Positions 7,651 to 12,258 are shown, numbered from the stretch's first letter. The stretch: 18,326 nucleotides of DNA from an uncultured Methanosarcinales archaeon (GCA_964637115.1 CAZWVL010000014.1:1-18326), one strand, 5' to 3'. The notes: generated from the letters alone by a model not told the origin. Translations and numbers: made by a program.

Positions 7651-7723
7651 AGGCGAGGGAGGGACTCGAACCCCCGAATCGCAGGGTTGCAGCCTGCTGC
7701 CTTTGCCGCTTGGCTACCTCGCC
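7651..7723 (-). tRNA. tRNA-Cys (GCA), intronless, CCA not encoded
   Basis: GGCGAGG-TA-GCCAAGCGGCAAAGGC-A-GCAGG-CTGCAAC-CCTGC-GATTC-GGGGG-TTCGAGT-CCCTC-CCTCGCC-T forms a complete 73-nt cloverleaf with a U73 discriminator. Confidence 0.97.
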
Positions 7724-7748: not shown

Positions 7749-7780
7749 TATATATAACTTTTGGCAGTAACCTTTTTAAA
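7749..7780. promoter_or_regulatory. Back-to-back TATA boxes for tRNA-Cys (minus, TTATATATA 7757-7749) and leuS (plus, TTTTTAAA 7773-7780)
   Basis: The boxes end 26 nt before the tRNA 5' end and 23 nt before ATG 7803. Confidence 0.65.
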
Positions 7781-7802
7781 AACGGCACAGTCAAAAGAAG
7801 CT

Positions 7803-10607
7803 ATGGCACTTGATTTTCACAAGCTAGCAAGAAAATGGCAAAGGAAATGGAAAAGCCAGCACGTGTTTGAAGCAGATATGGATACAAACAAGCAGAAGTT
7901 CTTTCTGACTACACCATATCCGTATGTCAATGGATTGCTACATATTGGACACACTTATACTTACATGCGCGTAGAAGCGTTTGCACGATTCAAAAGAATG
8001 AGAGGCTACAATGTGCTGTTTCCATTTGCATTCCACGCAACCGGAGCGCCAATTGACACAGCTGCAAAAAGAGTGGCAGAAGGCGAAGAGAAACAGATAA
8101 ACGCACTCAAGATGATGGGCTTTACTGATATTGAAGCTTTCAAAGATCCCATACACTGGATAAAGACATTTTCTAAAGGTGCAGAGAAAGATTTGAACGA
8201 ATATGGGCTGGCGATAGACTGGAGAAGAAGCTTCATAACTACAGACCTTAATCCAAGATATGACAAGTTCATCAAATGGCAATTTAATACTCTCAAGAAA
8301 AAAGGACTAGTTGCACAAGGAGAACATCCGGTTGTTTGGTGTTCAAAAGAAAACACTCCAGTAGGTGACCACGCACGTTCTGAAGGCGAAGGAGAAACAC
8401 CACAAGAGATGATTGTGTTAAAGTTCAGGGCAGACGGTCATATTTTACCGTGTGCGACTTTTAGGCCCGAGACAATATTTGGAGTTACAAACATCTGGGT
8501 AAATCCTGAGTTGACGTATATTGAAGCAGATGTAGACGGCGAGCACTGGATGATAACAGAACAGTGCATGCGCAAACTGGCTGACCAAAAGCATACTGTG
8601 AAAGAGATTAGAAAGATATCAGGCAAAGAGATTGTTGGAGCAAATGTCACAAATCCGGTGACTGGGACAAAGATTCCAGTATATCCAGCGCATTTTGTAA
8701 CAGCAGATACTGGAACTGGCATTGTCATGAGCGTGCCAAGCCACGCACCATACGACTGGATGGCACTAAAAGAACTGCAGGACAAAAATTATTCTGGAGC
8801 TAAAGAGATAAAACCGATTTCGCTAATTTCTGTTGAAGGATTTGGAGAACATCCGGCAGTAGAAATGTGCACGAAGATGGGCATAAAGAATACTTCAGAC
8901 GCCAAACTTGAAGAAGCAACAGGCGAAGTATACAAAAAAGAGTTCCACACAGGAAAATTAAAACAGAATACCGGAAAGTACGCAGGAAAGACAATACAAG
9001 GAGCAAAACCAGAGATAATAGCGGATCTAACTTCTGAGAAAAAAGCAGTTATCTTGTTGGAATTGATAAATCCGGTCATTTGCCGATGCCTGACAAGGTG
9101 TCATGTTAAGATTGTTGACAATCAATGGTTCTTACGATATGGAGACACTGCTTGGAAACAGCAGGCAATGAAATGTTTGCAAGAAATGAAACTTTATCCT
9201 GAGAAAATAAGACCGCAATTTGAGTATGTGGTTGACTGGCTGAAAGACTGGGCGTGCACAAGAGAATTCGGATTTGGCACGGATTTGCCATGGGACAAAA
9301 AATGGAAAATAGAAAGTCTCAGTGATAGCACAATTTACAATGCGTTTTACACTATTGTACACCATTTGAAGAAAGTGCCACTTGGCAAAATAAAGGACAG
9401 ATTGTTTGATTATGTGTTCTTAGGAATCGGAGACCCAGATGAATTGGGCGTGGATGTTAAAGTATTGCAGGACATGCAAAGAGAATTCAGATACTGGTAT
9501 CCGGTAGATTTCAGAAGCTCAGGAAAAGACTTAGTGCAGAATCATCTGACATTCTACATCTTCAATCATACAGGCTGCTTCCCAGAACAATACTGGCCAA
9601 GAGGAATTGCCGTTAATGGTTACGTGAGCATCCAGAAACAGAAGATGAGCAAGAGCAAAGGAAACTTCAAGACACTTAGAGATGTGATTAAAGCATTCGG
9701 CGCAGATATTGTAAGAATAAGCATTTTATCGACGGGAGAAGAACTAAATGACGTTGACTGGGACCCCGATCTAGCAGAAACAATGAAGGGCAAATTAGAG
9801 CAATGGTATGATTTCGCACTCAAAAATTACGGCAAAAATGGCGTTACTCGAGCAAAAAACGAGATAGACAAATGGATGGAGCATCAACTGCATTCCGCAA
9901 TAAAGGATGCTACTACTGCAATGGATGAGACGTTGTATAGGACGGCGCTTGCACGCGGATACTTTGACGTACAAAGACATTTGAAATGGTACATCAGAAG
10001 AACAGCAGGAGAAATGAATCAGGATGTGCTTAATCAGATTATTGAAGCACAGACGTTGATGCTGCAGCCATTTACGCCGCATCTTTGTGAAGAAATATGG
10101 TCAAAATTAGAGAAACCACAGTTAATTGTAAATGAGAAATGGCCTCAACATGATGAAAACAAGATAAATCCTGCAATAGAGCAGGCAGAAGGATTAATGG
10201 CACAAGTGCTTGACGATGTAGGACAAATATTGAAATTGGCAAAAGTTGACAGGCCCGTCATGATAACATTATTTGTTGCGCACGACTGGAAAGCAAAGTT
10301 GTTTATAAAATTGAAAGAAATAATGGCAAGTACAAGGGATATTGGGCAGATCATGAAGGCCATTATGGCGGAGTTCAAAGAACACGCACAGGAAGCTAGC
10401 GGACTTGTGCAGAAGATTGCGAAAGATCCAAGCAAATTGCCCAAGCAAATGGCACACCAGGAAGCAGAATACCAGAATTTGATGGACGCGATTGCGTTCT
10501 TCAAACAGGAATTTGGATGCCCTGTCGACATAATCAAAGAACAAGAAAGCGCTGAAGCAAAAGCAAAACAAGCACTGCCTGGAAAACCGGCGATACTCGT
10601 CAAATGA
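7803..10607 (+). CDS. leuS: Leucine--tRNA ligase, archaeal type, single chain
   Basis: PYPYVNGLLHIGH (HIGH), KMSKSKGN, editing-domain motifs TFRPET and GTGIVMSVPSHAPYD, GKDLVQNHL and C-terminal KALPGKPAILV. ATG 7803 preferred over TTG 7761. Confidence 0.97.
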   Translation: MALDFHKLARKWQRKWKSQHVFEADMDTNKQKFFLTTPYPYVNGLLHIGHTYTYMRVEAFARFKRMRGYNVLFPFAFHATGAPIDTAAKRVAEGEEKQINALKMMGFTDIEAFKDPIHWIKTFSKGAEKDLNEYGLAIDWRRSFITTDLNPRYDKFIKWQFNTLKKKGLVAQGEHPVVWCSKENTPVGDHARSEGEGETPQEMIVLKFRADGHILPCATFRPETIFGVTNIWVNPELTYIEADVDGEHWMITEQCMRKLADQKHTVKEIRKISGKEIVGANVTNPVTGTKIPVYPAHFVTADTGTGIVMSVPSHAPYDWMALKELQDKNYSGAKEIKPISLISVEGFGEHPAVEMCTKMGIKNTSDAKLEEATGEVYKKEFHTGKLKQNTGKYAGKTIQGAKPEIIADLTSEKKAVILLELINPVICRCLTRCHVKIVDNQWFLRYGDTAWKQQAMKCLQEMKLYPEKIRPQFEYVVDWLKDWACTREFGFGTDLPWDKKWKIESLSDSTIYNAFYTIVHHLKKVPLGKIKDRLFDYVFLGIGDPDELGVDVKVLQDMQREFRYWYPVDFRSSGKDLVQNHLTFYIFNHTGCFPEQYWPRGIAVNGYVSIQKQKMSKSKGNFKTLRDVIKAFGADIVRISILSTGEELNDVDWDPDLAETMKGKLEQWYDFALKNYGKNGVTRAKNEIDKWMEHQLHSAIKDATTAMDETLYRTALARGYFDVQRHLKWYIRRTAGEMNQDVLNQIIEAQTLMLQPFTPHLCEEIWSKLEKPQLIVNEKWPQHDENKINPAIEQAEGLMAQVLDDVGQILKLAKVDRPVMITLFVAHDWKAKLFIKLKEIMASTRDIGQIMKAIMAEFKEHAQEASGLVQKIAKDPSKLPKQMAHQEAEYQNLMDAIAFFKQEFGCPVDIIKEQESAEAKAKQALPGKPAILVK

Positions 10608-11140
10608 AAGAAACAGAAGTTAAAATTCTGGAAGTAAATGTTGCAGGAATACAACGAAAATTACGCAAGCTTGGCGCTAAAAAGGTTGAAGAATGCATTA
10701 TTCACGAGAGGATTTTTGATTTTGCTGACAAACCAATACCAAAAGGAGAATTGTGCAGAGTGCGCCACCACGGCAATAGAACAGAAATCACGTACAAACA
10801 AAACCCAACAAAAGGGACAAAATTTCTTGAGCACGACGAATATCAGACAAATGTTGATGATTTTGAAGAAATGTGCAAAATATTCCAGTGCATTGGAATG
10901 AAAATAAAAGCTGATAGACAAAAAAGGAGAATTTCTTATAAGCTTGGAAAAATAAAATTTGAAATTGACAAATATCCAACCATTCCAGCATATATGGAAG
11001 TTGAAGGAACGCGCAGTGACATTGTAAGAGCCCTGAAGAAGTTAGGATATACGCTTAAAGACACCACAAATATGTCAGGATCGCAAGTTCTGAAGCAGTA
11101 TGGCGTGAATGTGAAGTATCAGCGATTCAAAAATAAGTAG
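10604..11140 (+). CDS. cyaB: CYTH-domain protein (class IV adenylate cyclase / triphosphate tunnel metalloenzyme)
   Basis: N-terminal ETEVK (ExExK), CRVR, ITYK, K.R.SY and EIDKYP...YMEVEG. ATGA overlap with the leuS stop suggests translational coupling. The actual substrate is not established. Confidence 0.85.
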   Translation: MKETEVKILEVNVAGIQRKLRKLGAKKVEECIIHERIFDFADKPIPKGELCRVRHHGNRTEITYKQNPTKGTKFLEHDEYQTNVDDFEEMCKIFQCIGMKIKADRQKRRISYKLGKIKFEIDKYPTIPAYMEVEGTRSDIVRALKKLGYTLKDTTNMSGSQVLKQYGVNVKYQRFKNK

Positions 11141-11411
11141 GCGGACACGCCCAAGAGTGGGTACACAAGTACACAAGAGTTTCGCCTCATGCCTTTCTCA
11201 GTTCCGCAACCCGACAAGCATTGAGAACTACAGTTATGGTTGCTACCGTCAGGTCCTGGCCAGATTCCTGCAGCCACAATCCTGCCGGACAGAACGTCAG
11301 TGTCCAGCACAAGACTCCTGCGCAGATCGTGCACTGCCTCTCGAACTTCGACACCGTTTAAAGCCCGTTAACGGTAACAGGAGAGGGCTAATCTCCCTGC
11401 CTAGTCCGCCC
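11139..11411 (-). ncRNA. ffs: Archaeal signal recognition particle (7S/SRP) RNA, non-canonical S domain
   Basis: Helix 1 GGCGGAC/GUCCGCC. Alu domain with a UGU motif and complementary loops AGCCC (11385-11389) and GGGCU (11362-11366). Helix 5 pairings GUGCACGA/UUGUGUAC, UGCGCAGGAGU/ACUCUUGUGUA and CUUGUGCU/GGCAUGAG; their G-U wobbles fix the minus strand. SRP54 site GGC-CAGG-ACC-UGAC-GGU-AGCA-ACC. Own promoter 22 nt upstream. Confidence 0.93.
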
Positions 11412-11432
11412 ATGTAGAAAACAATTTGATGC

Positions 11433-11450
11433 TTTAAAAAGGTTTCGACG
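11433..11450 (-). promoter_or_regulatory. BRE-TATA (CGTCGAAACC-TTTTTAAA) for the SRP RNA
   Basis: CGAAA BRE-like element directly 5' of TTTTTAAA, which ends 22 nt before the RNA 5' end. Confidence 0.75.
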
Positions 11451-11454
11451 AGAA

Positions 11455-12258
11455 CTACTTTGGCGGAGACGCTGTAGGTGGCACTTGTGTGTTTGGCAAT
11501 TTTTTCAGGGCGTTCTGGAAATAAGTTGCCATTTCATCAAGCATAGTGTGGAATCCTTCTATTTTTGGCCCAACAACTGTTTTAAGCATTCTTGCATAAG
11601 TCAACGCGTCTGAAATTTCTTTTGCAGCTTGCCCATATTCATGCTCCTGTTTAATAACAGCAGCTTCACGGTCCTTGAGATCTTTTCTCATTCCACTCAA
11701 CTCATTGGTTTTTCTCTCAAGATTGAGCTCCAAAATGCCCAATTCCTCAGAGCGTGCTTTTAATTTGACATCATAATCATTAACACGAGCCAGTTCAGCA
11801 TCATAACGCCTGCCTTTCTCAGTTACTTCGGCTTCACGCGCTTTCGCGTCGGCCAAATACTGCATATTTTCTTTCCTAATTTTTTCATCTTCCTGCGCTT
11901 TATCTCCCACAATCTTCATACGCTCTTCGAGAGTAGCACGCTCTCTTTCCGTAAGGCGATTAAAATATAAAAGAAGAGATTCACGCAATGCCACAGTATT
12001 TTGAGGCATTGCCTTGTCAATTTCTTCAATTTCACTGAGATATTTCTGATAATTCTTGCTTTTTGCAAACATTATCTCCTGCCGGTCAGGGGGCGAATTT
12101 GGAAATTCATTCTTAATGTACCACGCTTTCAGCTCTTCCTTTCTCCTGGAAACGTCGCCTTCAGCCAGAATTTTAGCTAACTCATCAATTGTCTTAAATC
12201 CAGCAGGGATGGCATACAGTATGTCATCCTTCTTACCGTGCTTTGATGTCTCATTCAT
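11455..12258 (-). CDS. Hypothetical coiled-coil protein (267 aa)
   Basis: Long open frame, rich in E/K/R/A with heptad-like runs (e.g. LKARSEELGILELNLERKTNELSGMRKDLKDRE). BRE-TATA (CGAAA, TTTATAAAA 12290-12282) ends 24 nt upstream. No family recognised. Confidence 0.75.
   Translation of the reverse strand: MNETSKHGKKDDILYAIPAGFKTIDELAKILAEGDVSRRKEELKAWYIKNEFPNSPPDRQEIMFAKSKNYQKYLSEIEEIDKAMPQNTVALRESLLLYFNRLTERERATLEERMKIVGDKAQEDEKIRKENMQYLADAKAREAEVTEKGRRYDAELARVNDYDVKLKARSEELGILELNLERKTNELSGMRKDLKDREAAVIKQEHEYGQAAKEISDALTYARMLKTVVGPKIEGFHTMLDEMATYFQNALKKLPNTQVPPTASPPK

Follow-up and report, generated by a model that had tools for sequence, protein, structure and literature searches.

The window, an 18,326-nucleotide stretch of DNA, carries a gene for an SRP RNA that we read, with a probability of about 85%, as a functional molecule without helix 6 that would form a Bacillus-like particle with SRP54 alone, and in which the UGAC tip of helix 8 would be a change separate from the loss of SRP19. 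Reviews place SRP19 and helix 6 in every archaeal group and describe an adenosine clamp between helices 6 and 8 that "likely exists in all archaea" (PMC2905702). In the open-access literature we found no published account of DPANN archaea that lack SRP19 or helix 6, and an earlier mention is possible.

The SRP RNA gene and its host genome

An Rfam covariance search assigns the 273-nt gene to positions 11139-11411 of the minus strand, where RF01857 matches with 131.4 bits (E 3e-30), above its curated gathering score of 96.5, and is covered end to end over model positions 1-317. In cmscan this family is the best among the overlapping SRP-clan matches, ahead of Bacteria_large_SRP (RF01854). The minimum free energy (MFE) fold (-114 kcal/mol, z -3.6) and orthologues in the phylum further support identification as an SRP (7S) RNA, and the gene is the single SRP RNA match in the window's 98%-complete genome.

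All elements of the RNA described below lie on the minus strand. Helix 1 is closed by its 5′ strand, GGGCGGAC (11404-11411), pairing with 11139-11146, and the corresponding alignment pairs (1-7 with 275-281) covary. The Alu domain (11353-11399) comprises the helix 3 hairpin (11378-11399), the helix 4 hairpin (11353-11375) and the UGUNR motif, here UGUUA (11375-11379). Both of its stems covary in 71 relatives which, together with the Rfam alignment, bears out the proposal made from the sequence alone that a full Alu domain is kept. The two Alu loops, AGCCC and GGGCU, are complementary as read from the sequence, and relatives such as L007 (AGCCG/CGGCU) keep this complementarity. Distal helix 5 is formed by a 5′ strand at 11277-11296, which includes the conserved CUGUCC of the 5e region, and by the 3′ strand CAAUGCUUGUCGGGUUGCGGAACUG at 11199-11223, and the two strands covary with each other. 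A 3-nt junction, UGG (11274-11276), separates helix 5 from helix 8 at the site of the helix 6 branch of other archaea. Helix 8 (11228-11273), the hairpin bound by the SRP54 M domain, is defined by the Rfam alignment, covariation and conservation: pairs 156-158/179-181 and 164-166/171-173 covary, and conservation reaches at least 90% in the AGCA and in the asymmetric-loop GAA. Its symmetric loop, CAGG/AGCA (11255-11258 / 11241-11244), is intact, just as the sequence-only reading had described it.

Outside the RNA, a TATA-box-like sequence, TTTTTAAAG (11432-11440, minus strand), precedes the RNA 5′ end by 21-29 nt, and a run of five T (11129-11133, minus strand) follows just past the 3′ end; read from the sequence, these are a putative promoter of the SRP RNA and a candidate archaeal terminator. 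The gene is convergent with a CYTH-domain ORF (10604-11140, plus strand) whose end lies 2 nt inside the RNA 3′ end and whose start is overlapped by 4 nt by leuS (7761-10607), and a tRNA gene (7651-7723, minus strand, Rfam 62 bits) is located just upstream of leuS on the opposite strand. Directly upstream of the SRP RNA is a 267-aa ORF (11455-12258) without a Pfam match. Two genes upstream, on the same strand as the SRP RNA, lies a signal-peptide-peptidase gene (presenilin-type, PF06550; 12869-13726, minus strand), which shares with the SRP RNA the theme of secretion.

The genome to which the window belongs comprises 1.27 Mb in 27 contigs and is 98.3% complete. Its nearest SRP54 relatives bear the name Candidatus Woesearchaeota, and by these names the host would be a DPANN archaeon, Candidatus Woesearchaeota, Woesearchaeales, in agreement with an earlier guess at a DPANN organism. 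The genome encodes SRP54 and FtsY of archaeal type: the SRP54 M domain (PF02978) matches with 101 bits on contig C1, PF00448 matches occur on contigs C1 and C8, and the FtsY ORF spans 432 aa.

Helix 6 and SRP19

Helix 6 is the docking hairpin of SRP19. In the Rfam alignment of the window RNA, 40 model positions of helix 6 are deleted and 1 nt remains, and in the MFE fold helix 5 continues directly into helix 8. A hairpin at the proposed helix-6 site is absent both from this fold and from the RNAalifold consensus of the 71 relatives, which constitute alignment A1 and were drawn from SRP RNAs gathered from 30 relatives of the order and 45 more across the phylum. On A1, RNAalifold recovers compensatory changes in 74 of 79 pairs and no helix 6. 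A control SRP RNA from Archaeoglobaceae contains the complete 40-position helix 6 with a GGAG loop, and SRP RNAs of Aenigmatarchaeota and Micrarchaeota carry the same 40-position deletion as the window. The window RNA thus contains no hairpin with the GNAR tetraloop of a canonical helix 6, and with helix 6 removed, helix 5 enters helix 8 through a junction of 3-4 nt.

The sequence-only reading had instead described a helix 6 of about 28 nt, capped by UCCGG or GGCA (11283-11289), within a span (11238-11302) that proves to hold helix 8 and part of helix 5 inside the SRP RNA gene. The segment taken for helix 6 is the 5′ strand of distal helix 5, where GUCCGGCAGGAUUG, within 11277-11296, forms 15 pairs with 11199-11223 that are intact in 97.7% of cells. 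This pairing is marked by 213 doubly changed cells and 13 pairs with two-sided changes, is matched by 0 of 500 column shuffles, and drops to 37-53% when the partner is shifted by 1-3 columns. We consider it very improbable that helix 6 persists as a hairpin of about 28 nt whose new UCCGG or GGCA loop changed together with the helix-8 loop after loss or divergence of SRP19. SRP19 is indeed absent from the window genome, and GUCC-GGCA-GGAU can be drawn as a 4-bp hairpin that is pairable in 90% of cells among relatives. That figure arises because the sequence is conserved, however, and no covariation backs the hairpin: doubly changed cells number 2, 346-492 of 500 shuffles score equally well, the nucleotides of the hairpin covary with the helix 5 3′ strand, and Rfam deletes helix 6. 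The alternative register CUG-UCCGG-CAG is pairable in only 75% of cells. An extra hairpin, UUCUCA...UGAGAA (11195-11227), that would create a four-way junction coincides partly with the helix 5 3′ strand and is 59% paired in relatives, not above shuffles.

SRP19 was not found in the 98.3%-complete window genome with Pfam PF01922 at E ≤ 10. Because the Pfam route misses the Sulfolobus acidocaldarius control, we built a custom SRP19 profile and applied it to a six-frame translation. The profile comprises 13 proteins from lineages labelled Euryarchaeota, Crenarchaeota, Thaumarchaeota, Bathyarchaeota, Thorarchaeota and others, taken from named archaeal genomes that were located by a 16S signature scan and PF01922. 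Run with all filters off against the window genome's full set of 15,179 six-frame ORFs (40 aa or longer), it gave a best E of 0.4 at 11 bits. In leave-one-out searches at the same database size, every SRP19 left out was recovered at 65-111 bits with an E of at most 6e-18, and a canonical SRP19 in the window genome would therefore have been detected. The suspected loss or divergence of SRP19 is thus borne out in that neither PF01922 nor the exhaustive custom-profile search reveals an encoded srp19, and a proposed genome search for the three protein genes finds srp54 and ftsY without srp19.

Beyond the window genome, PF01922 detected no SRP19 above cut-off in 41 relatives, in 151 phylum genomes that are all at least 90% complete, in nine named DPANN genomes (Micrarchaeota, Nanohaloarchaeota, Aenigmatarchaeota, 'Parvarchaeota', Nanoarchaeia and Pacearchaeota), or in 80 genomes from the phyla Micrarchaeota, Aenigmatarchaeota and Nanohaloarchaeota. 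The custom profile found none in 80 DPANN genomes, closed single-contig ones included, and overall SRP19 was found in none of about 270 other DPANN genomes from four phyla. This survey of DPANN covers the Nanoarchaeota/Woesearchaeota-Pacearchaeota phylum, Micrarchaeota, Aenigmatarchaeota and Nanohaloarchaeota, with Altiarchaeota, Iainarchaeota, Undinarchaeota and Huberarchaeota outside the sample. Two unpublished genomes, G010 and G023 (both with GGAA tips), are counted in the order-level tallies, the tip alignments and the set of 76 SRP RNAs discussed below, and a third, G235, in one length tally of further DPANN phyla; all three were excluded from A1, both 80-genome SRP19 searches and the search for FtsY relatives, and no claim depends on them.

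Among 16 non-DPANN archaea, PF01922 identified SRP19 in 13, and the custom profile raised this to 14 by recovering a divergent Ferroplasma SRP19 that Pfam had missed. This protein (L264; G201:C33:4587-4826) scores 33 bits with the custom profile in a Ferroplasma MAG and fits a deviant AAAG helix-6 loop of the kind reported for Thermoplasmatales. For genomes other than that of the window, the first-pass filter misses some true SRP19s, namely Sulfolobus acidocaldarius and, before the custom profile, Ferroplasma. SRP19 was also not found, with either PF01922 or the custom profile, in two non-DPANN MAGs named 'Thermococci' and Hadesarchaea, and a negative from a single MAG is accordingly weak evidence. 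The 'Thermococci' MAG B88_G9 (L219:1501-1792) has a 17-nt helix-6 stub, and in the Hadesarchaea MAG (L226:335-665) helix 6 is complete and 29 nt are inserted at the tip of helix 8. The pattern of SRP19 loss in DPANN rests on the numbers of genomes and on closed genomes.

The length of the RNA provides a second measure of helix-6 loss. SRP RNA orthologues are 263-278 nt long in 141 of 150 phylum genomes, about 44 nt below the archaeal consensus, and those of Micrarchaeota, Aenigmatarchaeota and Nanohaloarchaeota are mostly 260-289 nt, as against 292-331 nt for non-DPANN SRP RNAs in the same sample. The helix-6-less architecture occurs in more than 200 independent assemblies, and the loss of helix 6 and SRP19 is common to every DPANN genome sampled, not special to the window organism.

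Longer SRP RNAs are present in Woesearchaeales genus g46 (309-320 nt), Aenigmatarchaeota (310-358 nt) and Micrarchaeota (288-312 nt), and were considered as possible keepers of helix 6; the seven that were folded or aligned have insertions in helix 8 or the Alu domain, and their genomes lack SRP19. In L061, L062 and L063 (Woesearchaeales f29, g46), a hairpin of 40-50 nt is inserted in the helix 8 5′ strand just 5′ of the symmetric-loop AGG, and all three RNAs have a UGAC tip and neither helix 6 nor SRP19. An apical extension of about 40 nt (20-40 nt) replaces the helix-8 tetraloop in the Aenigmatarchaeota RNAs L255, L257 and L259, 81 nt are inserted in the helix 8 5′ strand of L258 from the same phylum, and Alu domain insertions of roughly 50-85 nt occur in L260 and L262 (one Aenigmatarchaeon and one Micrarchaeon); helix 6 and SRP19 are absent in all six cases.

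A function of SRP19 could still persist in a highly diverged or non-homologous small RNA-binding protein acting on helix 8 or helix 5, an explanation we regard as quite improbable. The Pfam route misses some real SRP19s, DPANN genomes encode many small proteins of unknown function (the 267-aa ORF upstream of the SRP RNA, without a Pfam match, is one example), and a protein without detectable similarity to SRP19 could bind the S domain. Against this, no sampled DPANN retains the helix-6 docking site, the exhaustive profile search in the window genome returned noise where leave-one-out recovery across phyla reached at least 65 bits, and even where it occurs, SRP19 can be dispensed with (PMC2905702).

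The UGAC tip of helix 8

The apical tetraloop of helix 8 is UGAC (11248-11251), of the URRC type, in place of the usual GGAA. It is confirmed on the RNA strand as originally read, and is closed by the 3-bp stem ACC/GGU, whose Watson-Crick closing pair at 11247-11252 produces a C-UGAC-G arrangement that fits the URRC class. A 2010 survey gives only GRRA helix-8 tips for 81 archaeal SRP RNAs from all groups (PMC2905702), and the window RNA, with UGAC, falls outside this pattern. URRC and URRU are common alternative helix-8 loops in bacterial SRP RNAs (PMC4091067).

In a phylum-wide set of 76 SRP RNAs, helix 8 ends in GGAA in 61, UGAC in 11, GGGA in 2 and UGAU in 2, and GGAA accounts for 59 of 74 when G010 and G023 are left out. 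The tip ACC-UGAC-GGU is identical in three other species-level genomes of the window's genus, and UGAC occurs with other stems in seven further genomes. Because of this recurrence UGAC is not an assembly slip, and the possibility first raised with the loop, that reads would reveal GGAA or GNAG instead, is correspondingly remote. An artefact, either an assembly error or a decaying SRP RNA pseudogene, has next to no probability in our view: nothing favors it beyond the deviation from consensus, and it is opposed by the recurrence of the same architecture in more than 200 independent assemblies and of the identical tip in three congeneric species, by compensatory changes throughout the RNA, and by the lack of a second SRP RNA match in a 98%-complete genome encoding SRP54 and FtsY.

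Within the window's genus, UGAC is present in five species and GGAA in seven, and the FtsY nearest to that of the window (95% identity) comes from a GGAA species. On the FtsY tree, U-type tips imply no fewer than 4 switches with good support, and parsimony raises the number to as many as 10. A URRC tip occurs in 1 of 15 helix-6-bearing archaea sampled, and Methanomassiliicoccus sp. UBA6 (L229:1501-1811) combines a CCC-UGAC-GGG tip with an SRP19 of 78 bits and a full, GGAG-capped helix 6. URRC loops are therefore found in canonical archaeal SRP RNAs as well, at odds with the GRRA-only list of the 2010 survey. These distributions do not sustain the sequence-only reading that both loops changed together, since all DPANN sampled are without helix 6 and SRP19, yet 61 of 76 RNAs keep GGAA and 11 have UGAC. 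The correlation between URRC tips and absence of srp19 that had been suggested as a check fails when tested: most SRP19-less genomes have GGAA, and UBA6 has UGAC with SRP19. The retention of GGAA in 80% of helix-6-less relatives and the Methanomassiliicoccus case, where UGAC accompanies SRP19 and a canonical helix 6, likewise argue against a remnant of helix 6 that changed in concert with the helix-8 loop. In the reading favored here, UGAC is a separate and much younger change, unlinked to the loss of helix 6 or SRP19, that has arisen repeatedly in an already SRP19-less lineage, and the 10-nt helix-8 tip is a local hot spot of change.

Two congeneric RNAs (L019 and L017) read CGG-GGAA-CCG where the window, within 11241-11258, reads ACC-UGAC-GGU, and the flanking helix 8 is identical.

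A model summarised in PMC4091067 has Lys399 of FtsY tethering the GGAA loop in E. coli. Residue K399 of E. coli K-12 FtsY aligns with K343 of the FtsY encoded in the window genome, and the equivalent lysine is invariant in 70 of 70 FtsY NG domains, whatever the loop. Among these 70 relatives, no NG-domain column sets U-type lineages apart from G-type ones; the lysines at positions 200 and 204 of this domain seemed enriched for change and failed an independent-pairs test. UGAC probably contacts FtsY in the manner of GGAA.

Selection offers a different explanation for the tip, in which UGAC is an adaptive response to the lost adenosine clamp between helices 6 and 8 and is compensated in FtsY or SRP54. 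We judge this unlikely. DPANN helix-8 tips are unusually varied, encompassing GGAA, GGGA, UGAC, UGAU and, in some Aenigmatarchaeota, apical extensions of 20-40 nt, and the 81 archaeal SRP RNAs tabulated in reviews all have GRRA tips (PMC2905702), both of which an adaptive response would accommodate. However, no FtsY NG-domain column follows loop type, the K399-equivalent lysine is invariant, and UGAC also occurs together with an intact helix 6 and SRP19.

The proposed particle and known SRPs

Gene content points to an SRP54-only particle as most likely. The host is, by its SRP54 relatives, a DPANN archaeon, no SRP19 is encoded and the full Alu domain is kept, and for these reasons an SRP19-independent particle, as the sequence-only reading had suspected, is still the best interpretation. 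The RNA retains helix 1, the Alu domain, a long helix 5 with its 5e region and the SRP54-binding helix 8, with helix 6 cleanly removed. In the mechanism that we propose, SRP54 would bind helix 8 directly without SRP19, and the resulting SRP54-RNA particle would deliver ribosome-nascent-chain complexes to FtsY, with the UGAC tip serving as a URRC alternative to GNRA that would make the same contact with FtsY as GGAA. For helix 5 and the Alu domain, a role like that in other archaea is presumed. Published work documents that Haloferax volcanii survives without its SRP19 gene and that SRP54 of archaea can associate with SRP RNA when SRP19 is missing (PMC2905702, PMC6098224).

A set of archaeal phyla, represented by hundreds of genomes that include closed ones, thus lacks helix 6 and SRP19 but has SRP54, FtsY and a full Alu domain. 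The DPANN SRP complements the SRP19 knockout of Haloferax as an experiment of nature, and provides a minimal archaeal SRP for structural work. For the DPANN lineages, which are disputed as a monophyletic group, the shared lack of helix 6 and SRP19 supplies a clean uniting molecular marker, and SRP19 is unfit as a universal archaeal completeness marker where DPANN are concerned. UGAC itself is of minor importance; it extends the URRC tips of bacteria to archaea, both those with SRP19 and those without. What the window adds is that URRC is unlinked to the loss, that it occurs in a helix-6-bearing archaeon, that the FtsY lysine is invariant, and a catalogue of helix-8 insertions.

We also advance, as a distinctly unlikely proposal, a broader reading in which the DPANN-wide absence of helix 6 and SRP19 defines a two-component Bacillus-like SRP whose unclamped helix-8 tip is labile, taking the forms GGAA, GGGA, UGAC, UGAU, apical extensions and inserted hairpins, and in which the absence could be ancestral. 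If DPANN branch near the archaeal root, SRP19 and helix 6 could be a later invention of the remaining archaea and eukaryotes.

Canonical archaeal 7S RNA (RF01857; Methanocaldococcus jannaschii, Archaeoglobus fulgidus) resembles the window RNA in helix 1, in Alu helices 3 and 4 with the UGUNR motif, in the long helix 5 with its 5e region, and in the CAGG/AGCA site of helix 8. The window SRP differs from the canonical archaeal form in lacking helix 6 and an SRP19 gene, in having a UGAC tip and not GRRA, and in an RNA that is about 44 nt shorter (273 nt compared with about 310-317 nt). The bacterial URRC/URRU RNAs (PMC4091067) share the loop class, with the window UGAC fitting URRC, the UGAU of relatives fitting URRU and the equivalent of FtsY K399 kept, whereas in the window the URRC loop sits in an archaeal 7S-type RNA. 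Bacillus-type large SRP RNA (RF01854) combines, like the window RNA, an Alu domain, helix 5 and helix 8 without helix 6 or SRP19, and in its S domain one SRP54/Ffh protein binds a single hairpin, as we propose for the window. The window RNA is set apart from RF01854 by its archaeal sequence and covariance-model affinity, archaeal helix 1, host and SRP54, and its resemblance to the Bacillus type reflects convergent reduction, without membership of RF01854.
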